The notes under the pieces: model-generated
What the model was told of the DNA's origin: nothing
Seen by the model: the letters and a program-made list of their open reading frames with translations, nothing else
Databases searched by the model: none
Virus record (IMG/VR): IMGVR_UViG_3300001528_000136
Location: 122,906 to 186,905 of that record
Source: a virus
Taxonomy: Duplodnaviria > Heunggongvirae > Uroviricota > Caudoviricetes
Direction: 5' to 3' (one strand)
Length of the DNA: 64,000 nt
Part shown: positions 33,369 to 63,361 of the stretch, in pieces
How positions within the stretch are numbered: the stretch's first letter is position 1
Layout: each line of letters begins with the position of its first letter
Translations under genes and position numbers: made by a program

Positions 33369-34148
33369 TTAGTTATCAAGACCTACAAGAGTTGAAGAAT
33401 TGCCAGTAACCTTAGGCATGGCTCCATTCCATTTCTCTATCCATTGTTTCTTAACTAATAATGGAGTAAGAGAAGCATTTACAATAGAATTAGCTTTAGC
33501 TTCTGCTTCTGCTACTACTATCTTCTTTTTGGCTTCTGCTTCAGCTACTTGTACTTCATTAGCAGCCTTCTGTGCTAACTGAATAGCTCTATTCTTAGCA
33601 TCTACTGCATCTACAATAGTTTTAGGATATTGCAATCCACTAGTAAATTGGTCAAGAATAAATCCTTCTTTAGTTAAAAGAGCAGAGAGTCTCTTTTCAA
33701 TTGCTTGTTCAACCGCTTCTCTATTACTAACTATTTGGTCAGTTGTGAACTTATTAATTTCAATACGACAAGCATCTTTAACATACTTAAAGACTGGACC
33801 GTTAATTACATCTTTCAATTCTTTACGATATTTACGAAAGACTTTAGGAGCAGCACCATCTTTAATCTTGATATTGACATTTGGGTCTACTTTAAACTCT
33901 GAACCATCTTTTGCATTAATAGTAAATGGTTCATAGTCAATAGTTTGAACATAAGTAGGGTATTCATAAACCTCTTGTGTAAATGGATTGTAAACTACAC
34001 GTCCTGTTACCATAGATACATCATCCACACCTCTATCTGAGCCATAGAGATTAACTAAAATACCTTCACAGCCAGCATCAACTCTCTCACAGCTTGTGAA
34101 ACTTAATGTCATTAATAAAGCACTTGCGAAAATAAAGAATTTTTTCAT
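33369..34148 (-). CDS. SPFH/band-7 (prohibitin/HflK-like) domain lipoprotein
   Basis: Signal peptide + lipobox MKKFFIFASALLMTLSFTSC. C-terminal repeats QLAQKAANEVQVAEAEAKKKIVVAEAEAKA are typical of SPFH-domain proteins. Confidence 0.55.
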   Translation of the reverse strand: MKKFFIFASALLMTLSFTSCERVDAGCEGILVNLYGSDRGVDDVSMVTGRVVYNPFTQEVYEYPTYVQTIDYEPFTINAKDGSEFKVDPNVNIKIKDGAAPKVFRKYRKELKDVINGPVFKYVKDACRIEINKFTTDQIVSNREAVEQAIEKRLSALLTKEGFILDQFTSGLQYPKTIVDAVDAKNRAIQLAQKAANEVQVAEAEAKKKIVVAEAEAKANSIVNASLTPLLVKKQWIEKWNGAMPKVTGNSSTLVGLDN

Positions 34149-38844: not shown

Positions 38845-38869
38845 ATATTTAATTAGTTAAATAATTTAG

Positions 38870-38953
38870 TTGTCTGAGAGAGATTCGAACTCCCGAAGCT
38901 AAATAGCGGCTGATTTACAGTCAGCTGTGGTTGACCACTTCACATATCAGACA
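38870..38953 (-). tRNA. tRNA-Tyr (anticodon GUA), class II with a long variable arm
   Basis: Hand fold: acceptor TGTCTGA/TCAGACA. Anticodon stem GCTGA/TCAGC with loop CTGTAAA. Long variable arm. T-arm GGGAG-TTCGAAT-CTCTC. Confidence 0.55.
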
Positions 38954-38962
38954 ATAATTAGT

Positions 38963-39032
38963 TGCCGAGGTTGGAATTGCACCAACGTCCTCTAGCTTAT
39001 GAGGCTAGCAAGCTACTACTGCTCCACTCGGC
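38963..39032 (-). tRNA. tRNA-Met/Ile (anticodon CAU), short D-arm
   Basis: Acceptor GCCGAGT/CCTCGGC. Anticodon stem CTAGC/GCTAG with loop CTCATAA. T-stem GTTGG/CCAAC. Confidence 0.45.
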
Positions 39033-39196
39033 GATATAATATTAAAAGGAATAGTCGGCAGGGGTTTTGCTTTTAGTATCATCCTAACGTTGCTTCTTCC
39101 ATATCAAAATAACCTTCTTTAATTCATAAGGTAACGTTACCTCCCTACTACATAATCCGTGAGTTATAATGATATTGATACATACCCCCATGTTAA

Positions 39197-39270
39197 GGGC
39201 TTCCACCCAGACTCGAACTGAGAAAAACTGATTACAAATCAGTCATTTTACCGATTAAAATTACAGAAGC
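39197..39270 (-). tRNA. tRNA-Thr (anticodon UGU)
   Basis: Acceptor GCTTCTG/TGGAAGC. D-arm ATTT-TAATCGGTA-AAAT. Anticodon stem ACTGA/TCAGT with loop TTTGTAA. T-arm CTCAG-TTCGAGT-CTGGG. Confidence 0.55.
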
Positions 39271-39275
39271 ATTAG

Positions 39276-39349
39276 TGGACCACTAGAGAATCGAACTCTA
39301 CACAGAAATCTTGCAAGGATTCCTCGCCAGCCTTGGTACATGGCAGCCC
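39276..39349 (-). tRNA. tRNA-Ala (anticodon UGC) with G3:U70
   Basis: Acceptor GGGCTGC/GTGGTCC gives a G3-U70 wobble, the Ala identity element. Anticodon stem GAATC/GATTT with loop CTTGCAA. T-arm TAGAG-TTCGATT-CTCTA. The D-arm is atypical. Confidence 0.45.
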
Positions 39350-39589
39350 AAATATATAGATTTAATAAGTATGAATCATCACTCCTTACATCAGTAAGTA
39401 CCCATTTGGTACTTACTCTCAGAAATCTAATTAATTAAATAATTGGTGGCATATACAATCTACAATACTGATTTGCATACCATTCCCAAGCTTTTTTCAA
39501 GCCTTTAAGATAAGATTTCACAATTCTTTTCATACAATTAAAAAATTAATAGTTAATTTAATTAATCTAATTATATTACAGAAGGAGTG

Positions 39590-39662
39590 AGCAGGATAAG
39601 GGATTCAAACCCTCCCATTCAGCTTGGAAGGCTGACATGCTATCACTAACACCAATCCTGCA
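39590..39662 (-). tRNA. tRNA-Gly (anticodon UCC)
   Basis: Acceptor GCAGGAT/ATCCTGC. Anticodon stem TCAGC/GCTGA with loop CTTCCAA. T-arm GAGGG-TTTGAAT-CCCTT. Confidence 0.55.
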
Positions 39663-40294: not shown

Positions 40295-40463
40295 ATCTTA
40301 TTCCCAAATAAGCAGCTATTATAGTATTAACTATAGGACAAATAATAAGAAACCATAGTAAACAACTATCTGGAACCTTTCTTTTATCACATCTATCAAC
40401 TATGAAACAAATGCTAGCTAACCATGTTATAATAAGAAAAACCCATAATATAATACTAGTCAT
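40248..40463 (-). CDS. small membrane protein (71 aa)
   Basis: Two hydrophobic helices. Confidence 0.3.
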   Translation of the reverse strand: MTSIILWVFLIITWLASICFIVDRCDKRKVPDSCLLWFLIICPIVNTIIAAYLGIRYGNWKESLKVLFSND

Positions 40464-41631
40464 AAATAGTTCCTGCTTCTATTATATTAGAATCTTCACT
40501 CATTCCTAGATAAACATGGTCTATGGGTAAATCCCATAACATAAGACTTTTTATAAAAGCTTGCTTAAATAAGGACTTAGGTGGCAAACAATTGTTATGA
40601 ATAGGAATATTATCATCTTTGATGCAATCCCAATGTGTGACTACTATATTGAATTTAAGATTATACTTTTCATTGTAATTATCAAGTCTATGTCTATCTA
40701 TAACTCTACCAAATAGTGGAAAATCAAAAGCGCCTCTCTTAAATACTCCTTGTACTCCATCATCACTATTAGAGGGTTCATCTAAAGTAAAGTATTTAGT
40801 TAAATCACATTTGTCATTAAATTCCCATCCATTACCATGTCTAGTTAGATAGGGTCTCATAACTAAATAGACCTCCATAGGATTCTTAAAGTTAGATTCA
40901 GGAATACCATTAAGACCTGTTTTACTAGGAGTGCAATGAGGCATAAATCCACAATCCATATCTAATAAAAGACCTTGTGAACCTTCCCATATTACAGTAT
41001 CAAAATCATAACTAAGTCTTTGGTCATTAACTGGACTCCATGATACTATTTTAAATGTATCTTCTTTAGTGCGCAAAAAGTCACAAGCTTTTATAAAGAG
41101 TTCTTCTAAAGACTGGTCTTTACCAAATTTATAATATTCTCTAATATCTTCCAAATATGTTATAGGATAAGTTATAAGGTCTCGAACATTATAAAAACTC
41201 CATTCATTAGAAAGATTCTGGTATCTCTCATAAGTATTGTAAATACCTTTGCCACATGTACCATCCTTATGTATCTTTTCATTAAGAGAGTTAGCTAGGA
41301 CATCATAAGGTGAAATTATTCTACACTCACTATTAATATACAGAGGTGGAACTTCTACTCCTTCTTTAATTAGCGTTTCGTACTCATTATAGATACATAT
41401 AGGGTCTATAAATACATTCTTATTTAAATAGGTTGGAATACCAAGTAGTACACCAGAACCCCAAGAACTACAAATATGAGACTTACCACTATAAACCACC
41501 CTATGACCTGCCTGGGGACCCCCACTAAAGCGATGGACGATAGGTCTTCTACTGTTTTGGCACAGCCATTGAACAGTATTCCCTTTACCAGAGTCACCAA
41601 AGAATGCATCAATTACTACTTTGTGTTGCAT
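40456..41631 (-). CDS. adenylosuccinate synthetase family protein (PurA/PurZ-like)
   Basis: N-terminal P-loop VVIDAFFGDSGKGNTVQW (PurA QWGDEGKGK-like). GTCGKGIYNTYERY (PurA GTTxxGIGPAY-like). 391 aa. Confidence 0.65.
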   Translation of the reverse strand: MQHKVVIDAFFGDSGKGNTVQWLCQNSRRPIVHRFSGGPQAGHRVVYSGKSHICSSWGSGVLLGIPTYLNKNVFIDPICIYNEYETLIKEGVEVPPLYINSECRIISPYDVLANSLNEKIHKDGTCGKGIYNTYERYQNLSNEWSFYNVRDLITYPITYLEDIREYYKFGKDQSLEELFIKACDFLRTKEDTFKIVSWSPVNDQRLSYDFDTVIWEGSQGLLLDMDCGFMPHCTPSKTGLNGIPESNFKNPMEVYLVMRPYLTRHGNGWEFNDKCDLTKYFTLDEPSNSDDGVQGVFKRGAFDFPLFGRVIDRHRLDNYNEKYNLKFNIVVTHWDCIKDDNIPIHNNCLPPKSLFKQAFIKSLMLWDLPIDHVYLGMSEDSNIIEAGTIYD

Positions 41632-42424
41632 AACTGTTAGCTACAATACGTGAAATAGTTTTACCTACATTATCTGGACTAGATATAACTAAATTATCAC
41701 CTACATAAGGTGTCCAGCTAGGCATAATATGTCTCTTTAAGTCATACCAGCTATCATGCTCAACATGAATGTGATAAACATCCCATTTTTCAGATACTGC
41801 TTCATAAATAGTAGAAGTAGCTAAATCCTCACCACATTCATCACCAATATAGTGAGTTATCGCTTCTCTAGGTAGTACCTTATGGATTGGTTCATCACTA
41901 ATTGTGATTAAGCAGCCTTTAACACTTCTTTTATCAAAAGCATCTGTTTTAATGTGTTTGGAAGCAAAATACCAACACATATGTGGGTCTTCACCTCCGT
42001 TACCACCACCTTTACCTTCAAGATATATCTTACGAAGCCACTTCTCCATAAGTTCATCAGAGGATTCAAATTGTCCTACTTGCAATGGGGCTTCTTCATA
42101 ACAACCTTCCACATCACCAAATGCCATAAAACAGATTTGAGGATTATCAATACCTGCTTTCATAATACTCTTCATACAATCAGGCAGAGTATTATCAATG
42201 AGATATTTAGGAATTGAGCCCATAGAACCAGTCTCATCCAATGCAATAATTATAGGGAAAGACTCTGGATGCTCTTCAGAATCACAAGATTCTCTATAAT
42301 TAATATTAATTGGATTCATTTCTGAATCAATATGTTTCTTACTAAATGTTTTCTCTATAGATTGAGATTTATAACCAACACTTCTACTCTTAGCATTAAT
42401 ATAAGAATAACTTCCACCACCCAT
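41609..42424 (-). CDS. von Willebrand factor A (vWA) domain protein (TerY-like?)
   Basis: MIDAS-like IIIALDETGSMGS (DxTGSM). 271 aa. Confidence 0.45.
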   Translation of the reverse strand: MGGGSYSYINAKSRSVGYKSQSIEKTFSKKHIDSEMNPININYRESCDSEEHPESFPIIIALDETGSMGSIPKYLIDNTLPDCMKSIMKAGIDNPQICFMAFGDVEGCYEEAPLQVGQFESSDELMEKWLRKIYLEGKGGGNGGEDPHMCWYFASKHIKTDAFDKRSVKGCLITISDEPIHKVLPREAITHYIGDECGEDLATSTIYEAVSEKWDVYHIHVEHDSWYDLKRHIMPSWTPYVGDNLVISSPDNVGKTISRIVANSYATQSSN

Positions 42425-43524
42425 TACTTAGTCTCCTCTTCTTTAGGTTCAACTTTAGGAGTTAACACATTAACTAAACTAGCTAAAGTATCAGCAAGTT
42501 TATCTACTTTGGCATTGACCTTATCTAATTCAGATGATTCTTCTGGCTTAGATGAATTTTTAGTAATACTCTGATTTACACTATTATTGGTTTGACCAAA
42601 CATATTAGCAAATGGATTATTACCACCTTGCATCATTTGAGACATCATAAGCATTTCCATCATGCCTCCACCATTACCACTCTGTTTGTTCTTATCCAAC
42701 ATCCATAAGAGTGCCATATTAAAGCCACCACCTGTATTACTAAATAGATTCTTACCTTCTGGAGTCATAGATAAAGCCATAAGAGATTCAATATCAAATG
42801 AATCGCCATTAGCTAAAGCCAACACAATGGGATTAAATCCGCAACTTTCATCAAAGTTAAATGGATTGATAATTACCTTAGTAGTAGCCTGACCCATAAC
42901 AGCATCTTTGATAGCTTTCTTGTTATGAGTATAACCACTGTAAGATAATGTCTTTAAAGTACCATCATTTCCAACACCAATAACATAACTATATGAATTA
43001 GCGTTCTTAATGATTTCACCACTACGAATCTGATTAGTGGGTTTAGCAATACTAAAGATAAATGGTAATTCAATAGTCATTGCTTCTGGATAACTAGTTA
43101 AATCACCATTAGAGTCAATAGCAATCCAATCATCAGAATCTCTGCTAGGTTTTACACAGAGTGTACCACCCATAGACATTCTGACATCAGTTTCTTGTTG
43201 AGGCATAAATTGAGCAGTATATCTACTCAAAATACCACTAAACATACCATTTTTCTTACCGCTGTTTAATTCCATTTTGTTTTTATTTAAGTTATTAACT
43301 ACTAATTTATCGTTAATTGTAAGTACTGTAGCGTGAACAAATTCTGATTCTCTCTGCGATTTATTAAATACCCATCGTACTTGAAATGGTTGGTCATAAC
43401 CTTCAAGAGTTAGCATATCACCGTTCTTTATATATTGATGGTCAATAATAAAAGCATCATTATCACGACAATCAATTTCAGCTACAGATAATTTATGGTC
43501 TGTAAAAACACCTCTAATTATCAT
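42424..43524 (-). CDS. hypothetical protein with a G/M/Q-rich low-complexity C-terminal region (366 aa)
   Basis: Intact ORF. ...GGGFNMALLWML...GNGGGMMEMLMMSQMMQGGNNPF. Confidence 0.35.
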   Translation of the reverse strand: MIIRGVFTDHKLSVAEIDCRDNDAFIIDHQYIKNGDMLTLEGYDQPFQVRWVFNKSQRESEFVHATVLTINDKLVVNNLNKNKMELNSGKKNGMFSGILSRYTAQFMPQQETDVRMSMGGTLCVKPSRDSDDWIAIDSNGDLTSYPEAMTIELPFIFSIAKPTNQIRSGEIIKNANSYSYVIGVGNDGTLKTLSYSGYTHNKKAIKDAVMGQATTKVIINPFNFDESCGFNPIVLALANGDSFDIESLMALSMTPEGKNLFSNTGGGFNMALLWMLDKNKQSGNGGGMMEMLMMSQMMQGGNNPFANMFGQTNNSVNQSITKNSSKPEESSELDKVNAKVDKLADTLASLVNVLTPKVEPKEEETK

Positions 43525-43745
43525 ACTAAAATCACAGTAATTGTATCATTAATTAAATCTGTAATTACGTTTTCAACTTTATACATACTAGAACCAGCAC
43601 ATACAGTTTCTCCTATCCTAGGTACATAATTAAGTTTATCATCTTTCAGAGAGTGTGAAACGAATAATTTTCTGGTCTCTAAAATATCTCCCTTTCTATT
43701 CTTATAATAGATTTTCATAAAGCTCTTATTGTGTATTCTATACAA
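43521..43745 (-). CDS. hypothetical protein (74 aa)
   Basis: Intact ORF. Confidence 0.25.
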   Translation of the reverse strand: MYRIHNKSFMKIYYKNRKGDILETRKLFVSHSLKDDKLNYVPRIGETVCAGSSMYKVENVITDLINDTITVILV

Positions 43746-43897
43746 TCAATATCTAAGTTATAACATTTATCAGTTACAACATACTTAGCACCTTTGATTT
43801 TAATATAATCACCTTTAATTAGGTTCTCATAGTTATTATTCTTTTTAATATCAAAAGGAGCAAGTTTTGAACCACCAACATGAAATATTACACTCAT
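43715..43897 (-). CDS. hypothetical protein (60 aa)
   Basis: Intact ORF. Confidence 0.2.
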   Translation of the reverse strand: MSVIFHVGGSKLAPFDIKKNNNYENLIKGDYIKIKGAKYVVTDKCYNLDIDCIEYTIRAL

Positions 43898-44121
43898 AGT
43901 TTAATTAATTCATCTCTATAAAGTTTATTATACTTAGTACCTAAAGCTTTCATTAACTTATAAAAATCAGCTCTAGCACCACTATCACATTTAATTAATT
44001 CTTTTATTTTATTTATATAAGAATCTTCTGGAATAGCCATACTCTGATTTGTCATAAGATATTTAGTTATAATAATCTTATTAGTTAATTGAGAAGCTTT
44101 TGTTGCTGTTTCTTCTGTCAT
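43894..44121 (-). CDS. hypothetical protein (75 aa)
   Basis: Intact ORF. Confidence 0.25.
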   Translation of the reverse strand: MTEETATKASQLTNKIIITKYLMTNQSMAIPEDSYINKIKELIKCDSGARADFYKLMKALGTKYNKLYRDELIKL

Positions 44122-44336
44122 ATTAACTATCTATTACATAAAATATGTATGTCCAAATTAATATAAATGTTATCAACAATATACAAGACATTATACCTCT
44201 TTAATAGAAATGAACTTATACATAGTTTGACAATAATGACCTATGAAATTAGCTTTAACCTTTTCCATACTTATACCTGTTAATTTAATAGTACACTCTT
44301 TATTTTTACGAGCGTCATAGTATGTTACTTCAAATT

Positions 44337-44747
44337 TCATATTACTATTGATTTATTAATTAGTTTATCTAAAGCATCCTTCAACCCATTTCTATCAGTA
44401 AGAGATACAATAAGTCCTTTTTGAGATAATTCAACATCAAACTCATAAGTTTTATTAGTTAAACTCTTCCAAACAATAGCTTTTTTATCAGCTATACTTA
44501 TATTCTTCCAAGTAAATAACTTACAATGAGTACCATTAAATAAGACATCATGTTCTCCCTCTGGTATATCATAGAAATAAATAGGTAATCCTATTCCTTC
44601 TTTATAATATTGAGATACTTTATTTAAATATGTGGGATTAATTACAACTAAATCTGTATCATATCTAGATTGTAAAGCACCATGAATATAGAAATTAGGT
44701 TGAAATTCCCATGTATTGTGTCTAGCTAAACTATTGAATTCTAACAT
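44337..44747 (-). CDS. hypothetical protein (136 aa)
   Basis: Intact ORF. Confidence 0.3.
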   Translation of the reverse strand: MLEFNSLARHNTWEFQPNFYIHGALQSRYDTDLVVINPTYLNKVSQYYKEGIGLPIYFYDIPEGEHDVLFNGTHCKLFTWKNISIADKKAIVWKSLTNKTYEFDVELSQKGLIVSLTDRNGLKDALDKLINKSIVI

Positions 44748-44859
44748 TTCTTCTTTTTAAACTTACGTATGAGCCATAAATCTAGTAATAGGGCGACTAT
44801 GAAAATAATCACAATCGCCCAGATGCATTGCATAAATGTTAATACAATCATCTATGTAG

Positions 44860-47334
44860 TCAATTAACAAGTTTCTTACACCAATACCATAGTTCTCTAA
44901 TAACAGGAACTGCCGCAGTAACTCCCACTATCTTCAACCATGTCATAATGTCAAGAGGTTCTGTTCTAAATACATCACCACCAAATTGAACTATAAGTAC
45001 TTGACCTATAAATATAACTAAGCAAATACCTATAAATGCTGGATTTTTAAATAGACCATTGAATATGCTTCTATCCTGATTAAATACTCTAGCATTAAAT
45101 AGATTCCAGAATTGAAGCATTACAAAGATGGTAAAGAACTCAGTAAGTGAACAGATATTACTAATTAATAAGTATAGTAGAATACCAGTATAGATAAGTC
45201 CTACACCAAGAATCTCTGTCCACATTGGTTTAGTTATAATGAATGCTTTAGGGTCTCTAGGACTTTCTGACATTACAGCATCATTAGCTGGTTCAGTAGC
45301 TAAAGCAAGAGCCGCAAATGTATCCATAATTAGATTTACCCATAGCATCTGAGTTACAGTAAATGGTAAATCTACTCCTACAAATGGTCCTACACAAGCA
45401 ATAAGTATAGCTACAACATTGACAGTAAGCTGGAACAAGATAAAGTGTTGAATATTCTTATATAGACTTCTGCCCCACTTTACTCCTAAGATAATAGAAG
45501 GAAAAGAATTGTCTAACAAAATAACATCTGCTGCATTCTTAGCTATGTCAGTACCATTATTCATAGCTATACCTACCTCAGCTTGATTAAGAGCTGCTGA
45601 ATCATTACTACCATCTCCCACACTAGCAACAACCTCGCCCATTTGTTGGAATCGCTTAACTAATTCCTGTTTATCTTCAGGTCTAGTTCTAGCAAATACA
45701 TCTGTCTTAGCTAAGTTAGACATAGTTTGTCCAACTATATCATTTCCTAACATATAATTAGGAGTTTGAGATATATTTGCATCTTTAGCTATAGAACATG
45801 CAGTTTCTGGATTATCACCTGTTACTATCTTGACTTTGATTCCTGCGTTTCTAGCTACTTTAATTGCATCAGGTACATTAGTCCTAACAGGGTCTTCAAT
45901 AGCTACATAGCCGTCCCATATGAACTCATTAAGGGTATTTATATCTTTTGACACCTTATGAGCAAAGGCTATACAACGGCGACCTAATTTCTGTTGTTCA
46001 GCTACATTAGATATACCAATAGAATCTTTACAATATTTAGCTATAATTTCTGGGGCGCCCTTAATAAATATACGAGTTTCATTATCAAAATTAACAGCGG
46101 TAATCATATATTTATTTTTACTATTAAAGTCTACTCTATTAACTATAGAATATTCCTTTCTAATAGTATCAATGTCAGTTTCATCAAGGTCTGCCCATTT
46201 AAGACATGCTCCTTCAGTTGGATTTCCTATTGTATTACCATCTTTATCAAGACATGCAGTAGAGTTAAGAACAATATTAAAGTGTGTATTTTCATTAACT
46301 CCTTCTTGATATACTACTTTCATCTTATTCTCTGTTAGGGTTCCCGTTTTATCAGTAAGAATAAGAGTAGTAGAACCAAGTGTTTCACAAGCGTGCATCT
46401 TTCTAATTAGGTTATTAGACTTAGCCATTCTCTTCATAGAATATGCAAGAGCTAATGTTACAGCCATAGGTAAACCTTCAGGAACAGCTACTACAATAAG
46501 AGCTACAGCAATCATTAAGAATTGTAAACAATCATTTACAATACCAATTACTTCTTTACCTACATAGCCTTGTTCTATAAAGATATATCTAACTAATAGA
46601 GATATAATCAGAATAGCAGCAGCACTAAATGCTATCTTATTAATTAGACTAGCTAGACCATTTAATTGCTTATTAAGAGGAGTTTCTACATCAGTAATAG
46701 AAGAAGCTTCTCTTGCAGTCTTGCCAATCTCAGTTTCATCACCTATTGCAATCACTTCACAAGTACATGTACCTTCCGATACTATAGTACTCTTATAAAT
46801 ACAGTTAGTAGGATAAGTGCCATTAGCTTTATCATAATCATATTTAGATACTGGAACACTCTCACCTGTCAAAGAGGATTCATCTACTTTAAGATTCATA
46901 TATTCCCTAACTATGCAATCAGCAGGAATCTCTTCACCAGCACTAAGTATTACTATATCACCTACTACTAAGGCTCTTCTAGGTACTTCTAAAATATTAT
47001 CATCTCTTCTTACTTTAACTAGAGTATCATCACTACTAGTTAGGAGTAAGTCAAACTTCTTAGAAGCTGACCAAGTATTCCAGAATCCTAAACCTACTGC
47101 AATAGCTATGGCTGCTATAATACCAATAGGTTCTGAATACTCCGTTTTTATTATACCTATAACTAAAGAGATACATGCTGCTACTAACAAAATAACTATA
47201 AGAGGGTCTTTAAAACCGTCAAATAGCATTTTATACCAAGGATCTCTCTTAGGAGGTGTAAGTACATTATAACCGAAAGAAGATTGAAGAGCCTGTACTT
47301 CTGAACCACTTAATCCTTTACTTATATCTGTCAT
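44860..47334 (-). CDS. P2-type (SERCA/PMCA-like, probably Ca2+) cation-transporting P-type ATPase
   Basis: LTGESVPV (TGES actuator). PEGLPMAVTLALAYSMKRMAK (PEGLP, M4). ILTDKTGTLTENKM (DKTGTLT phosphorylation site). VGDGSNDSAALNQAEVGIAM (GDGxND). 824 aa with about 8-10 TM helices. Confidence 0.85.
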   Translation of the reverse strand: MTDISKGLSGSEVQALQSSFGYNVLTPPKRDPWYKMLFDGFKDPLIVILLVAACISLVIGIIKTEYSEPIGIIAAIAIAVGLGFWNTWSASKKFDLLLTSSDDTLVKVRRDDNILEVPRRALVVGDIVILSAGEEIPADCIVREYMNLKVDESSLTGESVPVSKYDYDKANGTYPTNCIYKSTIVSEGTCTCEVIAIGDETEIGKTAREASSITDVETPLNKQLNGLASLINKIAFSAAAILIISLLVRYIFIEQGYVGKEVIGIVNDCLQFLMIAVALIVVAVPEGLPMAVTLALAYSMKRMAKSNNLIRKMHACETLGSTTLILTDKTGTLTENKMKVVYQEGVNENTHFNIVLNSTACLDKDGNTIGNPTEGACLKWADLDETDIDTIRKEYSIVNRVDFNSKNKYMITAVNFDNETRIFIKGAPEIIAKYCKDSIGISNVAEQQKLGRRCIAFAHKVSKDINTLNEFIWDGYVAIEDPVRTNVPDAIKVARNAGIKVKIVTGDNPETACSIAKDANISQTPNYMLGNDIVGQTMSNLAKTDVFARTRPEDKQELVKRFQQMGEVVASVGDGSNDSAALNQAEVGIAMNNGTDIAKNAADVILLDNSFPSIILGVKWGRSLYKNIQHFILFQLTVNVVAILIACVGPFVGVDLPFTVTQMLWVNLIMDTFAALALATEPANDAVMSESPRDPKAFIITKPMWTEILGVGLIYTGILLYLLISNICSLTEFFTIFVMLQFWNLFNARVFNQDRSIFNGLFKNPAFIGICLVIFIGQVLIVQFGGDVFRTEPLDIMTWLKIVGVTAAVPVIRELWYWCKKLVN

Positions 47335-47353
47335 TGTAATATATCCTATTTAA

Positions 47354-47980
47354 TTAGAGAAATGCAATAGTTGGACGTTTCATTTCGTCAATAGAGTGCC
47401 ATCCGCCAAATTCACCAATAGCTTTAAATCGCCACTCTCCATCTTTCTTGTAAGCAATACCAAGAATTACAGCTTGTTTATCTGCAATCTTTGTACCTTC
47501 CTTACCATCTTCAAGATTAAACTTAGCTAAGACATTTACATTAGCTTTTGTGCTTTTCTGAACGGAATCAGCAGTATAAATACGAAGACCCATGTAAGGA
47601 ATCTTACCAAAAGATTGATGTGTAAAGTTATTGAGAATAAAAGCGAGATACTCTACTCTAGGGTCAAGTTCATTAAGATGTACTTCAATAGTCTCGTTAT
47701 CAAGACCATCATTACCATCTACATCACCAGTTCTATCATCACCAGAATGACGAATACCAGGAGCACTGAGTTTATAATAAGCCACTTCCCCAATACAGTT
47801 CTTATTACCATCATACATAAGAACAGAAGAGTCCAAATCTACTTTCTCAACGGAAGCACCGAAACCTAAGAATCCTTTACTTTGAATAGCACCCCAATTA
47901 GAACCAAAGAACAATTTCTCTAAGCCATTATTAGACTCTTTTGACAGATTAATTCTGCCACCTTTACTTAAATTAATCAT
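47354..47980 (-). CDS. TerD-domain protein (paralog 1)
   Basis: N-terminal MINLSKGGRINLSKE is typical of TerD/TerE/TerZ. Also ...HSGDDRTGDVDGNDGLDNETIEV (Ca-binding DxDxD-like). Confidence 0.65.
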   Translation of the reverse strand: MINLSKGGRINLSKESNNGLEKLFFGSNWGAIQSKGFLGFGASVEKVDLDSSVLMYDGNKNCIGEVAYYKLSAPGIRHSGDDRTGDVDGNDGLDNETIEVHLNELDPRVEYLAFILNNFTHQSFGKIPYMGLRIYTADSVQKSTKANVNVLAKFNLEDGKEGTKIADKQAVILGIAYKKDGEWRFKAIGEFGGWHSIDEMKRPTIAFL

Positions 47981-48089
47981 ATTATTTATTTAGTTAACTA
48001 ACTAGAACAAAAATGGGAGCACCTAATTAAAGGCGCTCCCTTATAGAATCATAAAACTTATTACTCAAAGATGTGATTTATCTAATTAA

Positions 48090-48686
48090 TTAGATAGATG
48101 GTTGTACATCTTGAAAACCATAGCTCTGAAGAATGTCGCAATAGAGAACATCATTGTAGCTACCCTTGTCAGTACCAAGAGCTTCAAACTTCCATTCTCC
48201 ATTGTGCTTGTACAAGCGACAGAATACAATACAACGACTCATAGAAGCATCCTCAGTAAGGTCAAACTTAGCAAGAGGTTCAGCTTGCCCTTTGGCATAG
48301 AGCTTACAATAAGCATTATTTACCATACCAAAGTTCTGTTGACGATTTCTAGCATCATGGATATTAACTAGGATAACTACTTCTTCAACACTAGTTGGAA
48401 CCTTAGTAGTATCCACAATGATTGTTTCATCATCACCTTCACCTGCACCGTCACGGTTGTCACCAGAATGCTTAATAGCATTTTTCCAATTAGGTTGGTT
48501 GTAGAAAATCAACGCATCTTGCTCTACACACTTCTTAGAAGCATTAAGAGGAATTGCAGCCACATCAAGATCAAACTGTTTACCAGCTTGAGCCGCTACA
48601 TCCCAGCCTAAACCAACTGAAAACTCAGTTACACCACTTGCTTCTTTAGTAAGATTAATCTTACCACCTTTTGATAAATTTAACAT
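48090..48686 (-). CDS. TerD-domain protein (paralog 2)
   Basis: MLNLSKGGKINLTKEASG... and HSGDNRDGAGEGDDETIIV. Similar in sequence to 47354..47980. Confidence 0.65.
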   Translation of the reverse strand: MLNLSKGGKINLTKEASGVTEFSVGLGWDVAAQAGKQFDLDVAAIPLNASKKCVEQDALIFYNQPNWKNAIKHSGDNRDGAGEGDDETIIVDTTKVPTSVEEVVILVNIHDARNRQQNFGMVNNAYCKLYAKGQAEPLAKFDLTEDASMSRCIVFCRLYKHNGEWKFEALGTDKGSYNDVLYCDILQSYGFQDVQPSI

Positions 48687-48744
48687 AATTATATGATTTA
48701 TTTAATTACTATAAGAGCTTTGTGCCCTTATTTTTAATTCCTAA

Positions 48745-48927
48745 TTAATCTTCTCTAGATAGTTCAAAGTCAGCTTCCATATCAACTGCATAATCAGCTA
48801 GTGAATTATGTAGTATCATTAAATATAACTTATCTAGAGAATCGGATATATGTTCGAGACTATCAGCTATTCTACTTAATCTATTAATTAGTTTAGCTTG
48901 ATTCTCTTTTTCTTCTATTGTAAGCAT
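48745..48927 (-). CDS. hypothetical protein (60 aa)
   Basis: Intact ORF immediately downstream of the ACP gene. Confidence 0.25.
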   Translation of the reverse strand: MLTIEEKENQAKLINRLSRIADSLEHISDSLDKLYLMILHNSLADYAVDMEADFELSRED

Positions 48928-49154
48928 TATTTAACACGTGATAATATGTAAGATTGTAGTCTATTTAAGTTATTTAATTCATCTATTTTATAATCAGGAA
49001 TATCAATATTAAATTCTTTTTCAATAGACATAATTAAATCTGTCTTATCTAGACTATCTAAACCCATATCTGAAAAATCTTCAGTAGGGTCATCTGTTGG
49101 TCCCAAGTAAGATTCAACTATTTGTCTTACCTTTTTAGTTACTTCTTTGTTCAT
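48927..49154 (-). CDS. acyl carrier protein
   Basis: DMGLDSLDKTDLIMSIEKEFNIDIP contains the phosphopantetheine-attachment DSL motif of ACPs. 75 aa. Confidence 0.7.
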   Translation of the reverse strand: MNKEVTKKVRQIVESYLGPTDDPTEDFSDMGLDSLDKTDLIMSIEKEFNIDIPDYKIDELNNLNRLQSYILSRVK

Positions 49155-49277: not shown

Positions 49278-49670
49278 TTATTCAAGAATTTTCACTTTGA
49301 CATGTTTTATACTAATTCTCTTACTATCTTTTGGATGTATGAGAATATCAATGCGGTGCTTATGTCTTTTGTTCATAATGTCACGAACTTCATAAACACC
49401 CATACCTTCTATATACACTCTCTTTGGCTTATTTTTAGGAAAGAGATAAAGAAGATCACGAGAGATTGCACACCATTTAATATTGCCTCTTTTTAAATGA
49501 TGCAGATTAATTTTAGAACCATCAGCAGTAACTAATGGTTCATTATTACATTGACTCTTAACAGGTTGATAACAAGTAAGAGTAACATGTGTAGTTATAC
49601 TTTTAGATTGCGCTTTATTAGTCCAATTAATTAGACTAAATAAAATTGCTATAAATAATATACGCTTCAT
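49278..49670 (-). CDS. secreted 3D-domain (MltA/RlpA-like) cell-wall-binding protein
   Basis: Signal peptide MKRILFIAILFSLINWTNKAQS. ...TCYQP...TADGSKIN...WCAISRDLL...VYIEGMGVYEVRD resembles the 3D domain. Confidence 0.45.
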   Translation of the reverse strand: MKRILFIAILFSLINWTNKAQSKSITTHVTLTCYQPVKSQCNNEPLVTADGSKINLHHLKRGNIKWCAISRDLLYLFPKNKPKRVYIEGMGVYEVRDIMNKRHKHRIDILIHPKDSKRISIKHVKVKILE

Positions 49671-50373: not shown

Positions 50374-50375
50374 AA

Positions 50376-58521: not shown

Positions 58522-58914
58522 ATTTTTTTAATTATTTAAGTTAATAAATAAAATAAGGAAACACACTAAAATAGTGCATTTCCTCTTAATAAAATTCTAA
58601 CTAAATAGAGTTACTGAAACCTAGTATTTCTAGTATATCAAAGACTAATACTTCTGAGTATATCCGCAGTACTTATCACATTGTACTCTGTGATTTACCT
58701 CCTCTAATATTGACCATAAGCCAACCCTCCGAGCCAGTACATTTTTTAAGCCCACCTCCTGTCAAGATATACCCAATATCTTAATATTATTAATGTCAAA
58801 AATAAAAGGAGCCTATCTTCTCAGACAAGCTCCTCAATGCAATTAAGTGTATCTCGCTAGATACAACTCTAAACGTATTCTATAATTTTTCAACATGAAT
58901 CTTTGTTTAATTAG

Positions 58915-58987
58915 AAAGTACAACAAGACTCGAACTTGTATCTAAGGACTAAAGGTCCTTTGCTCTAACCAATTGAGCTATGTACTC
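58915..58987 (-). tRNA. tRNA-Lys-like (anticodon UUU) with an unusual anticodon loop (C at position 33, or a 6-bp stem with a 5-nt loop)
   Basis: Acceptor GAGTACA/TGTACTT. D-arm GCTC-AATTGGTTA-GAGC. Anticodon region AAGGA-CCTTTAG-TCCTT. T-arm ACAAG-TTCGAGT-CTTGT. Confidence 0.4.
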
Positions 58988-59147
58988 CACTACGAATCAC
59001 ACGTAGAAACATTCTGTCATACTGAATGTATAACCCTAGTTAGTTGATTATGTGCTACCACATACTGCCATAACGGATAGCCTCAGACAGCCTATTCCAG
59101 CGATTAAGCATCTGGACATGCTTTTATACTAGTATTGCTATATAGCC

Positions 59148-59570
59148 TTAATTATGTTTATTGGGTTTAAATAAGAATAGTTGAATTATATGAAAGAACA
59201 CAATAGAGAAAAATAATACACAATATACTCGTATATTACACTCTTCATAGGAAATATGTAATGAATGTGCAATATTAATTAAATCATTCATGCACAGAGT
59301 AAATGGGTCTTTAACTTCTCCATAGTGTTTCCAAAACATATCAGTTATACCTATATAAAAAATAAGTAAGCTGATATTTAAGGATACTCTACATCTTCCC
59401 AAAAATGTTTTAATTGTACTATATCGTAAAGATAATAAAGCACTCATAATACATATTATAGGACAAGCATAGATACATATGTAAACACTAGTCTCTTTAT
59501 AAGACCAATCAAATAGAAGCCCTATTAAATAGAGACATCCACATAAGAACATAAAAATTAATTTAAGCAT
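59148..59570 (-). CDS. integral membrane protein (140 aa, about 4 TM), possible lysis-cassette component
   Basis: Hydrophobic helices throughout. Adjacent to the TAG-rich peptidoglycan-binding gene. Confidence 0.35.
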   Translation of the reverse strand: MLKLIFMFLCGCLYLIGLLFDWSYKETSVYICIYACPIICIMSALLSLRYSTIKTFLGRCRVSLNISLLIFYIGITDMFWKHYGEVKDPFTLCMNDLINIAHSLHISYEECNIRVYCVLFFSIVFFHIIQLFLFKPNKHN

Positions 59571-59716
59571 TTTTTAAATAGATTTAATAATGAAGTAAAT
59601 ACAAGCATTACTATAAATAGAAATGCAATAACAAAAATCCATGAATAATGGATGTACTCAGGAGCACCTACATAGATATTCCCTTTCTCTAAGATTAAAT
59701 CAATTAATTGAATCAT
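59558..59716 (-). CDS. small single-TM protein (52 aa), holin-like by size and position
   Basis: MIQLIDLILEKGNIYVGAPEYIHYSWIFVIAFLFIVMLVFTSLLNLFKKCLN. ATG at 59716, immediately after the stop of the upstream gene. Assigned by size and context only. Confidence 0.3.
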   Translation of the reverse strand: MIQLIDLILEKGNIYVGAPEYIHYSWIFVIAFLFIVMLVFTSLLNLFKKCLN

Positions 59717-59719
59717 ATA

Positions 59720-61015
59720 TTAAAATTTTATTCCAGTTACAACTTTCTTAGCTCCTAACAGAGCATTTGAAGAAAATGGTCCAAAACCATAATCCCATAC
59801 ATCATATGTTTTACCATTGTTTCCATTTAAGTCTGTAATAATACTAAAATTACCATGTTGAGCATAAGGGTCTCCTCCAGATACAGAGAATATAATATGC
59901 TTACCGTCTTTTGATAACTTAACATTATCACTTTTATTTAAATTGCCAATATTTTTCTTAACATAATCTCTAGCCCAAGCTTGTTCGGCAGCTCTTGCTT
60001 TAGGGTCTGTAAATGTATAAGTAGAATCACCTTCATTAGTTACATATCCAAAATCAGTAGACCAAGTGTTATACTTCTATGGTTGATTTCCATGAAGTAA
60101 ATTCTGATCCATTCTACCTCTAATCTTAAATTGTCTGGATTTCATGTCTCTTCCTCCTGGTCCCCATTTAGGTTCTTCCTATTTAATAATATTCCACAAG
60201 CTATCTGCTGTAGTATAATTATTCTTATCATTTAAATCTAAATCAGCAAACTCCTATGAAGCTTTGCCAGCCTTAGAAGACCCTGTAATTCCTTTAACAA
60301 ATTTAGTACCAAATCCGTATATTCCTCCTATACCTACATCATTTCCATCAATCTTCACGTGTGCATTTAATCCTTTACTATCTAAAAATTTATTAACTGC
60401 CTATGTATCCTTAGAGTTATCATAACCAAAAGGAAACATATTATTTAAAGTTGATGAAACCATACCTCCTAATCCTTTAGATACTTCTCTAGGGTCAACT
60501 TTTAAATTTTTATTCTTTCCTAAATTATATAATACATTGTTGTCTATAGCATCTTGCTATGCCCTCTTCTTCTTAACTTGATAATCTTGCCAAGCTTTTT
60601 CACTTTGCTAGCCCCAATCTCCATCAACAGCTATTTTATAACCATTTTTCACTAATTCTTGTTGTTTAGCTGTAGCACCTGTTATATCATAACCTGCACC
60701 ATGTTTAGCTAACAATTTAGAGTTATAGTGCGATTGTTTCTATCTATATTGCTTAGCATCTTTATCAGCCTTAGAACTCATCTATTTAATATTACTCATT
60801 TTCTAATTAGCCCATTCCTGATTTCTTTGATTCTAACCAGTAATAGCTAATCCTAATGTACTAGATGCAAACTAATTGGATTTCTAAGGAGTTCTCTATT
60901 TAACCCTTTGTTTAGAATGTCTTATGTCATCTAAAACAATCTAAGTTCCCATACCTGCAACATCCTAAGTGTAGGCATTCTAAGCCTACAGTCTTTTTAC
61001 TAATTCACTTGCCAT
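59720..61015 (-). CDS. TAG-recoded gene (432 codons, 17 in-frame TAG). It encodes a protein with a PG_binding_1-like peptidoglycan-binding motif and is a putative late/lysis protein.
   Basis: ATG at 61015-61013. TAA at 59722-59720. Checked codon by codon on the minus strand: 17 TAG (at + 60077, 60179, 60254, 60401, 60557, 60608, 60740, 60782, 60803, 60833, 60872, 60884, 60896, 60941, 60965, 60980, 60986) and zero TAA/TGA in frame. The translated segment ...KLLAKHGAGYDITGATAKQQELVKNGYKIAVDGDWGxQSEKAWQDYQ... matches the PG-binding signature vDGxfGxxTxxAvxxFQ. Confidence 0.7.
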
Positions 61016-61155
61016 AAATAATTTATCAGTTAATAAATAAGTTATCTAATTAATTATAATCTATTAACTAATATATAAATAAAAAAAACAAATGCAACTA
61101 TTTTCTCAAACCATTACATTCTAGACTCACAATAGGATATTACAAGAATTGTAGA

Positions 61156-61220
61156 GGTCTAAGAGAGACTCGAACTCTCAGATATTCCTAACTAAATAAG
61201 ATTAGTTAATTATTTAGACC
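61156..61220 (-). ncRNA. degenerate tRNA-like element (65 nt) with acceptor and T-arm but no D-arm
   Basis: Acceptor GGTCTAA/TTAGACC. T-arm GAGAG-TTCGAGT-CTCTC. Central hairpin TAACTAA-TCTTAT-TTAGTTA with a 6-nt loop. Confidence 0.25.
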
Positions 61221-62333
61221 AACCACCTCATAGAGGATTAAAAATACTATGAATAAGAGCGTCTTCTCACACATGGCTGAAAAGTATCTTACAAATTAGA
61301 GTGTAACTAAATAGTATTAACTAAATAGATTACGTAAGATAAATTTGTGAGGCACCAACGAGTATATTTAATTAGAGTAACTTCCACCGCTCATAGTTGC
61401 TCCCGTATTAGACGAAACTCCAGATAAATAGTTATTAGCTAGCATCTATTCAATGAAATTAAAGGGTTTGAACCTCTGTTTCTCTTATTCTATACATTAT
61501 TAAATAAATACCTACTTGTATCTCAATTTATTTCATAACTAATTTAAGCACATGCTTATTTCATTATTACTTTAAATATATGATAATGTCTCTTATTAAT
61601 TCTCTTCCCTAATTAATAGAAAGGAGTGTGCACAATATATTCAGAGACTAAATTCCGCAATCTCCCATTTACAGCTGATAGAGAGATTTATAAGAACCAA
61701 ATACTTCCTTTATAAGGAAAGTGAGTAAATATTTAATAATGTATAACTAGTATTTTATGATTCTAGTATTATAAAATTCTAACAGTATTTATATATTCTA
61801 ACAGTATCTATATATTCTATTACCACTAAATAGTGGAGCTAGAGGGTACTGCCCCCTCGTCTTACATATTCGCATCAAAACATTCTTACAGCTTAGGTTT
61901 TAAAGACTATCCTTGTCTAGTAACAAATAAACCTTTAAAAATATGAATTTGCACTTTTCTGTTCCTAAGTAAGTGCTACTCGGTTTCTCAGGCTACTATA
62001 GCAACTGGAGAAACAGAAGAATTATTTACTCTTTCGCCTTTTATTGTTTTGTCGTATTTCCGACTGTCTTTGCTGTGTTTTTTATCTCCTATGCAATCAA
62101 ATGCTAGTTTAGCCCCGTATTTCTTTTATTAAATAAAACTACCTATTTTCACAAACCAGTAGTTTTTTAACATATTGTGTATTACGATGATAAAAATTAT
62201 TAATATTAAAAAGAGCATCAATCTTCACAGACTAATACTTTATAAATGTTTCAAAATAATATTCAATTTAATCACTTATCTTCACAGACTAGCAATTATA
62301 TAAACAATTTATACCAATATGGTACAGAATGAG

Positions 62334-62418
62334 TGCTCCTGACGTGATTTGAACACGCAATTCCCAAGGGACAGTGGTGTTTAAGACCACTCTGTATACC
62401 AAATTCCAGCACAGGAGC
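62334..62418 (-). tRNA. tRNA-Leu (anticodon UAA), class II
   Basis: Acceptor GCTCCTG/CAGGAGC. Anticodon stem GTGGT/ACCAC with loop CTTAAAC. Long variable arm. T-loop TTCAAAT. Confidence 0.6.
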
Positions 62419-62500
62419 TTATTTTTATAAATAAACTACTCTATCTTCACAGACTAAGTAGTTTAACCATTATGTACAAAAAACGAGTTAAATATAAGTG

Positions 62501-62575
62501 TGATTCCTATGAGATTTGAACTCATGCCCCTCAGATTAAAAATCTAATGCTCTAAACCAACTGAGCTAAGGAATC
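62501..62575 (-). tRNA. tRNA-Lys (anticodon UUU)
   Basis: Acceptor GATTCCT/AGGAATC. D-arm GCTC-AGTTGGTTTA-GAGC. Anticodon stem TTAGA/TCTGA with loop TTTTTAA. T-arm ATGAG-TTCAAAT-CTCAT. Confidence 0.6.
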
Positions 62576-63225: not shown

Positions 63226-63361
63226 ATTTAATTAAATATCATTGAAGCTATTACTGACACTATTAATAATAATACAATCCATGCAATTGTATGACAAAAA
63301 CAAAAAGTTCCAATAAGTAACAATATGAAAAAGAATAATGTTCTAATTACAAATTCCTCCA

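Follow-up and report, generated by a model that had tools for sequence, protein, structure and literature searches.

Tandem TerD genes beside a PMCA-type calcium pump, and a separate vWA/PurA-like cassette, in an abundant human-gut phage

Why does a human-gut phage carry, within 9 kb, two TerD paralogs, a P-type cation ATPase, an acyl carrier protein (ACP), a protein with a von Willebrand factor A (vWA) fold and a homolog of adenylosuccinate synthetase (PurA)? The genes lie in an 8.7-kb stretch, positions 40456-49154 of a 64,000-nt window (the whole piece of DNA analysed here, to which all positions refer) from IMG/VR record IMGVR_UViG_3300001528_000136. A previous reading of the letters and their open reading frames (ORFs), made without database searches and called the sequence-only reading below, took them for one accessory island. 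We find instead two unrelated, independently inherited cassettes, A (44860-49154) and B (40456-43524). The best explanation of the whole, which we regard as probable though well short of certain, is that cassette A is a TerD-assisted Ca2+ extrusion unit and that cassette B is a separate matter.

Two cassettes in one stretch of phage DNA

All named genes lie on the minus strand where the sequence-only reading had placed them (Table 1), and so do nearly all ORFs of the window, which has about 30% GC and uniform GC content and skew. The six genes are present, intact and phage-borne; five have a Pfam match and the vWA protein is assigned by its predicted fold. tRNAs and phage replication genes flank the stretch on either side. 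The replication and nucleotide genes of the window include NrdD, a DnaB-like helicase, DNA and RNA ligases, dUTPase and RNase H, and a protein related to crAss001_48 is encoded as well.

Forty-nine IMG/VR viral contigs of 33-225 kb repeat this gene order, with ATPase identities of 60-88%. Onto these loci we mapped 26 window proteins (tblastn, 1e-5), with a second pass using proteins of a sister clade; L numbers below denote single loci, of phages or of cells. The window's own clade (the close clade) has 18 loci, with L118 in addition, and the sister clade has 30. The exact vWA protein of the window is found on a 186,905-bp contig, and in the protein database some ATPase clusters hold more than 1,700 member sequences. 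We conclude that the stretch truly belongs to an abundant, ~187-kb human-gut phage and is neither a mis-assembly nor host DNA. The grounds on which the sequence-only reading was prepared to be abandoned do not apply: the TerD domains score as such, the ATPase gene is intact rather than a pseudogene, and no chimeric assembly is involved.

Could the genes of the whole 9 kb nevertheless work together as a single Ter-type stress or defence system, made up of TerD, a TerY-like vWA protein, the PurA-like enzyme, the pump and the ACP? The genes share one strand within 9 kb, and their order is the same in all of the window's clade. Combinations of TerD with vWA proteins, membrane components and the synthesis of nucleotide derivatives are known from Ter systems (PMC7824862), and Rhizobium phages carry TerD and the vWA-PurA cassette in one genome.

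However, in these Rhizobium phages TerD lies 84 kb from the vWA-PurA-like pair. The pair sits downstream of the pump in the window's clade, but in the sister clade it is found among unrelated genes 7-10 kb upstream, on the opposite side of the TerD-ATPase block. In four loci (L005, L008, L009 and L028) vWA or PurA-like genes are truncated or missing while TerD and the ATPase are retained; L008 and L009 have lost the cassette. Within our phage collection the vWA and PurA-like genes match almost the same records (about 201-202 from Mycobacterium, 10 from Rhizobium and 6 from Vibrio each), whereas the 130 records with TerD are a largely different set. The mycobacteriophages (about 200 records) and Va1-like Vibrio phages that carry cassette B have no TerD match listed in that collection.

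The components do not fit either. A Pfam scan of 100 window ORFs came back without TerC, and also without TelA, TerY/TerF, a phosphoribosyltransferase (PRTase), the HAD module or ATP-grasp. For TerB the window scan found nothing; the sister clade alone offers a weak DUF533 match (0.0095) in a 135-aa protein. The scan thus shows none of the parts that characterise a Ter system (TerC beside the TerD paralogs, TerB, TelA, TerY/TerF, the PRTase/HAD module), and the vWA protein matches neither the VWA nor the TerY family of Pfam. The sequence-only reading had also counted a nucleoside-like biosynthetic module among the usual parts of Ter systems, but the associated enzymes listed in the literature are PRTases and HAD phosphoesterases, with no PurA-like enzyme among them (PMC7824862). 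The single-island reading is largely refuted by synteny, and we consider it very unlikely.

The TerD pair and the pump

Cassette A consists of the ACP, a small ORF, TerD1, a terminator hairpin, TerD2 and the Ca2+-ATPase, in this order. The comparison of neighbourhoods that the sequence-only reading had proposed finds the order TerD-TerD-ATPase in 47 of the 49 loci, in both clades, and TerD1 is likewise present in 47. At ATPase identities of 60-88% so constant an order means that the co-location is not due to chance. Within the TerD1-TerD2-ATPase block the intergenic gaps measure 3-21 nt, apart from the hairpin, which is itself conserved; TerD2 is separated from the start of the ATPase by 19 nt in the window, and by 12-21 nt in relatives. 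Conserved synteny supports a functional link between TerD and cation handling.

What does the pump move? The sequence-only reading described a full-length, SERCA-like P-type ATPase with TGES, PEGLP, DKTGTLT and GDGSND motifs. Full length and motifs are borne out. Pfam finds the complete P-type architecture (Cation_ATPase_N, E1-E2, Cation_ATPase, HAD and Cation_ATPase_C), there are about 10 hydrophobic segments, and all catalytic motifs are in place (TGES at 156, PEGLP at 285, DKTGTLT at 328, TGDN at 505 and GDGSND at 573), with the signature of a Ca2+ pump. The subfamily, however, is a different one. The protein passes the PMCA-type equivalog TIGR01517 with 642 bits against a cut-off of 507.05 (residues 2-806), and its best relatives in the PDB are ACA8 (4.9e-124), PMCA1 and PMCA2. 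It fails the SERCA-type (P2A) model TIGR01116 (379 bits against 703.4), and the SERCA site-I residues are absent. The PMR1-type (451 against 798) and Mg2+-type (244 against 611) models fail, too.

A single Ca2+ site is expected to be formed by the Glu of PEGLP in transmembrane segment 4 (TM4) together with Asn/Asp of TM6, and the residues of SERCA site I should have given way to others. This is the pattern of the phage protein (PEGLP at 285, QLTVNVVA at 635, WVNLIMD at 665 and MLQFWN at 739), where the site-I replacements are Ala in TM5, Met in TM6 and Gln in TM8. In the alignment, TM5/TM6 (QLTVNV...WVNLIMDTFAALALATEP) show the same pattern as ACA8. The pump probably exports Ca2+, one ion per cycle.

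Alternatively, the pump may move another divalent cation, such as Mn2+ or Mg2+. The TerD-pump block would then be a metal-delivery or detoxification unit comparable to TerC-family proteins in their metalation and export roles; these proteins are linked to Mn2+ metalation (PMC12096827). PMR1/SPCA provides the second-best model and the second-best group of PDB relatives, and bacterial PMCA-like pumps are largely uncharacterised. Yet the PMCA-type Ca2+ equivalog is the only one that passes, the Ca2+-site residues match PMCA, and the TerD loops match those of solved TerD proteins. We regard a cation other than Ca2+ as quite unlikely.

The phage pump has no autoinhibitory extensions. Eukaryotic and plant PMCA/ACA pumps are its best relatives in sequence and structure and share the single-site residue pattern of TM4, TM5 and TM6, but they carry terminal extensions with calmodulin-binding autoinhibitory regions. 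The phage protein aligns to residues 128-~1012 of ACA8 only. Such an extension defines the eukaryotic P2B members, not the NCBIfam equivalog. Having no terminal extensions, the pump could be regulated in trans only.

The pump gene is maintained, and a group I intron inside the GDGxND motif of two relatives counts in support. In L034 (11711-12837), and at the same position in L037, the ATPase gene is interrupted at GDG|SND by a 1,127-bp insert; the insertion point corresponds to codons 575/576 of the window gene (~45607-45612). The insert matches the Rfam group I intron model over its full length with 36.3 bits (E 3e-7), which is below the gathering score of 50. It also encodes a 242-aa ORF that, by eye, resembles an HNH-type homing endonuclease. 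In a neighbour-joining tree the phage pumps form their own clade, about equidistant (43-48% identity) from homologs in Bacteroidales and cyanobacteria. The pump must thus have been acquired long ago, from a donor that cannot be named.

Both TerD paralogs of the sequence-only reading hold up. Their scores against Pfam PF02342 are 198.4 bits (TerD1) and 82.8 bits (TerD2) at a cut-off of 25.3, and both keep the acidic Ca2+-loop signature. TerD1 matches the PDB entries 3IBZ (6e-48) and 2KXT (1e-43), and its loop HSGDNRDGAGEGDDE aligns with GDNRTGEGDGDDE of Klebsiella TerD. The acidic loop, GDNRDGAGEGDDE, follows the family pattern GDN(R)xGxGxGDDE and is accompanied by DLD at 39. TerD2 matches 2KXT with 1.4e-11; its Ca2+ loop, GDDRTGDVDGNDGLDNE, has a 4-residue acidic insertion, and DLD is at 48. 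The solved homologs 3IBZ and 2KXT are, we assume, Ca2+-binding proteins, and a 2015 article by Daigle and colleagues reportedly links a Streptomyces terD gene to Ca2+ homeostasis. TerD1 and TerD2 probably bind Ca2+ via the conserved acidic loops.

The hairpin between the two TerD genes is kept in all close-clade loci. At least one change affects both sides of the stem and is compensatory: a C:G pair in the window is T:A in relatives (GGGAGCGCC/GGTGCTCCC versus GGGAGTATC/GGTACTCCC). In the sister clade TerD1 and TerD2 are separated by 3 nt, without a hairpin. In the window's clade TerD1 is probably made in excess because the terminator follows its gene.

How would such a unit work? The PMCA-type pump, with a single Ca2+ site and no regulatory domains, would insert into the cytoplasmic membrane of the host and export Ca2+ using ATP. 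TerD1 would be made in excess and TerD2 together with the pump. Both soluble TerD proteins may serve as a cytosolic Ca2+ buffer, or as a sensor for a pump that has no regulator of its own. The pump would stand in for TerC, the membrane protein that classical ter operons and Bacillus phage Shanette have beside TerD. The likely benefit would be a low cytosolic Ca2+ level in the infected cell, in a Ca2+-rich gut and while the envelope is perturbed. Exclusion of competing phages may be an added role.

The comparison with TerC can be made directly. In Shanette a TerD-family gene (annotated TerE) is directly followed by TerC. Neither the window nor any of the 49 phage loci and 45 cellular loci gives a match to Shanette TerC (tblastn, a single query of limited sensitivity). 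As TerC is undetected in the window and its relatives, the pump appears to occupy the TerC position. Ter components in phages, including Caulobacter jumbo phages and Acinetobacter phage ME3, were reviewed in 2021 (PMC7824862). Bacterial ter operons and phage Ter systems resemble cassette A in having tandem TerD-family paralogs next to a membrane protein that handles cations, in phages on large genomes. They differ in their membrane partner, which is TerC there and a P2B ATPase here.

Cells carry a similar arrangement. We surveyed relatives of the phage pump in cellular genomes, one per species, which gave 45 loci at 39-48% identity. In 11 of them, all from Nostoc or Xenococcus, two or three tandem TerD genes lie just upstream of the ATPase on the same strand. 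Xenococcus sp. PCC 7305 has exactly TerD-TerD-ATPase, with gaps of 22 and ~215 nt. Gene order, strand, ATPase subfamily (46-48% identity) and canonical TerD proteins are alike in these cyanobacteria and the phage. The cyanobacterial pumps are longer, however (970-1060 aa, measured as stop-to-stop ORFs, against 824 aa), and the clusters contain neither an ACP nor a divergent paralog of the TerD2 type, both of which the phage has. In Nostoc a protein without assignment and a metallopeptidase stand between TerD and the pump, where cassette A has neither. The Nostoc proteins are a 202-aa protein and one that resembles a zinc metallopeptidase (L080, 6472-7786). Just upstream of the Xenococcus cluster is a dynamin-family GTPase with DUF697 (L086, 5026-6474). 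An unverified gut viral scaffold (MT840059.1) reads ATPase-TerD-TerD.

A different purpose of cassette A has to be considered. It may be mainly a device for superinfection exclusion or competition between phages, and not a means of keeping homeostasis during replication. The ter operons of plasmids and chromosomes make their carriers resistant to phages and colicins, a role of this kind has been proposed for phage-borne Ter components (PMC7824862), and a gene for an SPFH membrane-scaffold protein joins the block in some sister-clade genomes. The phage family is also very abundant, as the ATPase clusters with more than 1,700 members show, which makes pressure from co-infection plausible. Against this, PADLOC matched no defence family among ten proteins, and the cyanobacterial TerD-TerD-ATPase clusters lie among housekeeping-type neighbours (ClpB, a glycosyltransferase, the dynamin-like GTPase) and not in defence islands. 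The suggestion of the sequence-only reading that the genes counter host defences or manipulate second messengers has no direct support. Exclusion would still run through Ca2+ handling and is therefore a rival for the physiological purpose only; as such it is a tenable but minor candidate.

Phage Ca2+ pumps are not new. The sequence-only reading called them rare in phages, which is dated: a paper of February 2026 described Ca2+ P-type ATPases in Jug and other gut phages, four phages of 159-197 kb among them (PMC12880540). Jug phages carry abundant TerD genes, their Ca2+ ATPases are highly transcribed in gut metatranscriptomes, and a manipulation of host Ca2+ has been proposed (PMC12880540). Like the phage studied here, they come from the human gut and encode a full-length Ca2+ P-type ATPase. 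The genomes are larger (360-402 kb against ~187 kb) and the setting is different, since the Jug pump is paired with an orphan protein of 77-91 aa and TerD lies in separate operons, while here two TerD genes are directly upstream.

Several points weigh against the proposed extrusion unit. In Jug phages, TerD genes and ATPase are described as separately transcribed regions, and no adjacent TerD was reported (PMC12880540), so a pump does not strictly need TerD next to it. One related phage locus, L032, has the pump without TerD within 10 kb, and the closest homologs of the ATPase in Bacteroidales are without TerD neighbours. The terminator between TerD1 and TerD2 means that TerD1 may be a transcription unit of its own. 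The choice between Ca2+ and Mn2+ within P2 pumps cannot be fixed from sequence. Finally, the ACP is constant in the window's clade and the Ca2+ model does not explain it.

ACP and small ORF are clade-specific additions to cassette A. The stand-alone ACP of the sequence-only reading matches Pfam: it scores 52.6 against 20.8 for PF00550, with the serine of the DSL motif at residue 33, although it stays below the NCBIfam ACP cut-offs (47.7 against 70.45). All 18 close-clade loci and L118 have its ORF 200-470 bp upstream of TerD1 (phmmer and a small hidden Markov model), and the 30 sister-clade loci lack it. Neither a phosphopantetheinyl transferase nor an acyl-ACP enzyme family was seen in the family scan of window ORFs. 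The small ORF has a homolog in L001 only; other close-clade genomes have an unrelated ORF of 63-69 aa in the same slot.

The sister clade has made additions of its own. In its 30 loci a very acidic 135-aa protein (L011, 9535-9942) lies between TerD2 and the pump. It has repeated DGK(V/I)xxEE motifs and matches weakly to EF-hand and to DUF533 (0.0095), the latter presumably a member of the TerB clan. It occupies the position that the orphan gene of 77-91 aa has upstream of the pump in Jug phages. Downstream of the pump, in the slot of the conserved 136-aa ORF of the window's clade, the sister clade encodes an unrelated hydrophobic protein of 132 aa, probably in the membrane. In three sister-clade loci (L011, L042 and L044) a homolog of the window's SPFH protein is immediately upstream of TerD1; the protein of L011 (7497-8306) matches the SPFH gene of the window with 38% identity (1.7e-47, tblastn). 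SPFH genes also occur 0.8 kb from the vWA-PurA pair (L122, 12754-13533) and adjoining an AAA gene (L119). The SPFH protein may be a membrane-scaffold partner or an accessory of cassette A.

The vWA protein and the PurA-like enzyme

Cassette B is a separate and widely distributed phage cassette of three genes; their products are a beta-barrel protein, a vWA protein and the PurA-like enzyme. With neither TerD nor the pump beside it, the cassette is met again in phages of Vibrio, Rhizobium and mycobacteria and in 375-kb gut phages. The middle gene was called vWA (TerY-like) by the sequence-only reading, and the first half of the name survives. Pfam finds nothing in the protein or in three homologs from cultured phages even at E=10 (no VWA, no TerY_C), and among its 2102 homologs none has a Pfam domain. 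However, its AlphaFold2 model (pLDDT 91.3) matches integrin beta I-like domains, vWF A3, CMG2 and BatA in Foldseek (probability 1.0, E ~4e-6, with a query TM score of only 0.41-0.54). A DxTxS motif like that of the metal ion-dependent adhesion site (MIDAS) is present as DETGS at residue 63. The model thus predicts a vWA fold with a MIDAS-like motif. The TerY/TerF half of the name is not supported: no Pfam family matches, and the conserved partner of the protein is the PurA-like enzyme and not TerD.

This partnership extends to cultured phages. A homolog of the window's vWA gene is just upstream of a PurA-like gene in Vibrio phage Va1 (5.5e-56) and Rhizobium phage RHph_Y65 (2.5e-44). In Mycobacterium phage Rizal the homolog, gp251 (6.9e-30), is one small gene (gp252) away from it. 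The two genes are also adjacent in L011, L046, L070, L118, L119 and L122.

The first gene of the cassette encodes the 366-aa protein. Its place is conserved on a contig of a 375-kb gut phage (E 5e-41) as well as in L118, L119 and L122. A profile of this protein finds the ORF upstream of the vWA gene with a probability of 93.6 in Va1 and 88.7 in RHph_Y65, values that the low-complexity, Met-rich tail may inflate. An hhalign comparison of the family with Rizal gp250 shows no relationship.

What does the PurA-like enzyme make? The sequence-only reading saw an adenylosuccinate-synthetase homolog. Membership in PF00709 is confirmed but PurA itself is not: all PurA equivalog cut-offs fail, with a best score of 99.8 bits against 402 (NF002223) and 86.5 against 395.55 for TIGR00184. 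The PDB matches are PurA chains (to 7e-21). Alignment A4 (MAFFT) compares the window enzyme with E. coli PurA, phiVC8 PurZ and five members of the cassette. The catalytic residues Asp13, His41 and Gln224 are kept, as are K16 and the GTP P-loop; the corresponding motifs are GDSGKG at 12, GGPQAGH at 37 and EGSQG at 216.

The positions that bind aspartate and IMP (inosine monophosphate) tell a different story. The roles of T129, R143, V273, T300 and T301 come from the mutagenesis of E. coli PurA, and R303 has been described as well (PMC8342488). None of these six determinants is conserved. The phage enzyme has GTCGKG, no Arg aligned to R143, TRHGNG (where V273 becomes H) and QGVFKRG in place of TTGRRRR. 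In alignment A4 the replacement of the T300/T301/R303 loop by QGxF[KR]xG is clade-wide. What tells against the altered aspartate loop is that it is read from one MAFFT alignment and from residue roles in the literature. Because the catalytic machinery is kept, the enzyme probably activates a 6-oxopurine nucleotide using GTP. Because the aspartate-binding positions are remodelled, its amine substrate may differ from aspartate.

One possible identity is PurZ, which would give the phage a Z-genome with 2-aminoadenine. phrog_1211 is annotated '2-aminooxy adenylosuccinate synthetase', and RefSeq phage records share this label. We consider this highly improbable, and PurZ is rejected. With 27.9 bits the enzyme falls far short of the cut-off of the PurZ model NF038379 (300), the PDB yields no chain named PurZ at E<1e-3, and Asp13 is retained. 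In PurZ a specific Ser replaces D13 (S23 in S-2L; PMC8342488). phiVC8 PurZ has this Ser, whereas all cassette members in alignment A4 keep the Asp. The families found in the window ORF scan include none of the HD/DatZ or MazG/MazZ type. The vWA-linked PurA-like genes of Rhizobium phages and mycobacteriophages bear the PurZ label in records such as NC_070967.1, NC_011272.1 and NC_031080.1. This RefSeq annotation was probably propagated in error from phrog_1211.

Judged by curated thresholds, the window's enzyme is neither a PurA nor a PurZ; it belongs to a clade distinct from both. It shares with PurA and PurZ the PF00709 fold family, the P-loop and the catalytic His and Gln, and with PurA the catalytic Asp. 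It differs in failing both curated models, in the clade-specific residues that replace the aspartate loop and V273, and in its constant vWA-fold partner; no such partner of PurA or PurZ is known in the literature that could be searched.

A simpler alternative is that the gene is an auxiliary adenylosuccinate synthetase that raises the supply of AMP and dATP, with vWA and 366-aa neighbours that have nothing to do with it. D13, H41, Q224 and the P-loop are kept, and an Asp also stands where E. coli PurA has the D of its TKLD motif (presumably D333 in PurA numbering). The genome has 30% GC, which would suit an extra adenine supply. In L121 the PurA-like gene is 6.5 kb away from the vWA gene. Furthermore, the surroundings of cassette B are rich in nucleotide genes in L070 (14127-15347) and L121 (5147-8889). 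A gene of the IMPDH/GMP-reductase family is near in L070, and a nucleoside 2-deoxyribosyltransferase, NUDIX and HAD genes are found in L121, with HAD_SAK_2 among the families seen in these neighbourhoods. The PurA-like enzyme may thus be part of a region for purine remodelling.

An auxiliary PurA is nevertheless hard to reconcile with a score that is a quarter of the equivalog cut-off, and with changes at the equivalents of R143, T129, V273, T300, T301 and R303 that are clade-specific and conserved. The same cassette occurs in cluster C mycobacteriophages, which we take to be GC-rich, and extra adenine would not be needed there. Adjacency to the vWA gene and co-occurrence with it are conserved across four very different host phyla. 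The auxiliary role is unlikely on balance, although it is the most serious of the alternatives that we considered.

A bolder proposal, speculative and in our view rather unlikely as a whole, has two parts. In cassette A, the TerD pair would be the trans-acting Ca2+ sensor of the pump. In cassette B, the beta-barrel, vWA and PurA-like proteins would represent a third branch next to PurA and PurZ, which joins another amine to yield a new N6-substituted purine nucleotide. The substrate would be IMP, GMP (guanosine monophosphate) or their deoxy forms, presented or regulated by the vWA/MIDAS partner. The product could be a DNA modification, or a signal or anti-defence metabolite.

Neighbouring features and what the cassettes mean

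Table 1. Features of the window, with positions in the 64,000-nt sequence.
Feature	Position	Strand	Assignment and remarks
SPFH/Band-7 membrane-scaffold protein	33369..34148	-	Pfam Band_7 9.6e-19; the sole one among 100 window ORFs
tRNA cluster	38869..39661		about 800 bp downstream of cassette B
PurA-like enzyme, 391 aa, phrog_1211	40456..41631	-	Pfam Adenylsucc_synt (PF00709) 1.2e-31, residues 5-268 only
vWA-fold protein (predicted), 271 aa, phrog_2971	41609..42424	-	AlphaFold2 and Foldseek; partner of PurA-like enzyme
366-aa protein, first gene of cassette B	42424..43524	-	structure model with two small beta-barrel domains, Met/Gly/Gln-rich disordered tail, C-terminal helix
Conserved ORF, 136 aa	44337..44747	-	downstream of pump; no family match; kept there in 18 close-clade loci
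PMCA-type (P2B) Ca2+-translocating P-type ATPase (predicted), 824 aa	44860..47334	-	NCBIfam TIGR01517; no autoinhibitory extensions
TerD2, divergent TerD paralog, 208 aa	47354..47980	-	Pfam TerD 2.8e-23; directly upstream of pump
Intrinsic-terminator-like hairpin and T-run	48015..48040	-	between TerD1 and TerD2; 10-bp stem, 7 GC pairs, then ATTTTTG
TerD1, canonical TerD-domain protein, 198 aa	48090..48686	-	Pfam TerD 9.8e-59
Small ORF, 60 aa	48745..48927	-	between ACP and TerD1; no family match
Acyl carrier protein, stand-alone, 75 aa	48927..49154	-	Pfam PP-binding 5.7e-14; phrog_5934 'acyl carrier protein'
130-aa protein	49278..49670	-	N-terminal signal-peptide-like segment; phrog_21574
tRNA cluster	58914..64000		

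Around the two cassettes the window has nine tRNA genes in two clusters, including two tRNA-Met and two tRNA-Lys. Upstream of the ACP the gene order differs between the window (49154-53277) and its closest relative (L001, 3683-8191). A homolog of the gene at 52867-53277 stands directly before the ACP in relatives and is 3.7 kb off in the window, which indicates a local rearrangement. The 130-aa protein next to the ACP is unusually well conserved, at ~80% identity in the close clade, and is found in 30 loci overall. It also matches a PHROG of L-alanyl-D-glutamate peptidases weakly and may be a secreted cell-wall enzyme.

Searches of the DNA itself returned little. Megablast of the 8.7 kb against 50,697 phage records matched nothing. 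An Mn2+ riboswitch is known upstream of TerC and P-type ATPase genes; between 39.5 and 50.5 kb Rfam matched a tRNA only and no riboswitch family, that of the Mn2+ riboswitch included. A scan for sigma-70 promoters was uninformative (53 sites observed, 62.5 expected).

The cassettes are only partly new. Phage TerD genes (2021) and phage Ca2+ P-type ATPases (2026) were known before. In the literature that could be searched, whose coverage is incomplete, we found no prior description of a conserved TerD-TerD-P2B block with clade-specific additions, of its cyanobacterial TerD-P2B counterpart, or of the beta-barrel/vWA/PurA-like cassette. The report of phage Ca2+ pumps is sharpened here, as the subfamily of the pump and the partners it travels with are shown.

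TerD proteins are widespread in bacteria, plasmids and phages, and their mode of action has been unclear for decades. The compact block of two TerD genes and a PMCA-type pump, found in abundant gut phages and in cyanobacteria, is a minimal system in which the function of TerD can be tested directly. If the TerD pair is indeed a sensor of the pump, then this enigmatic family has a concrete partner.

Cassette B is accessible in cultivable phages, such as Vibrio phage Va1, Rhizobium phage RHph_Y65 and Bxz1-like mycobacteriophages. Many records label its enzyme PurZ, which is probably wrong; the correct label and the real product could reveal a new nucleotide chemistry. If the enzyme is a third branch beside PurA and PurZ, then a cassette for this chemistry would be common to gut, Vibrio and Rhizobium phages and to cluster C mycobacteriophages.

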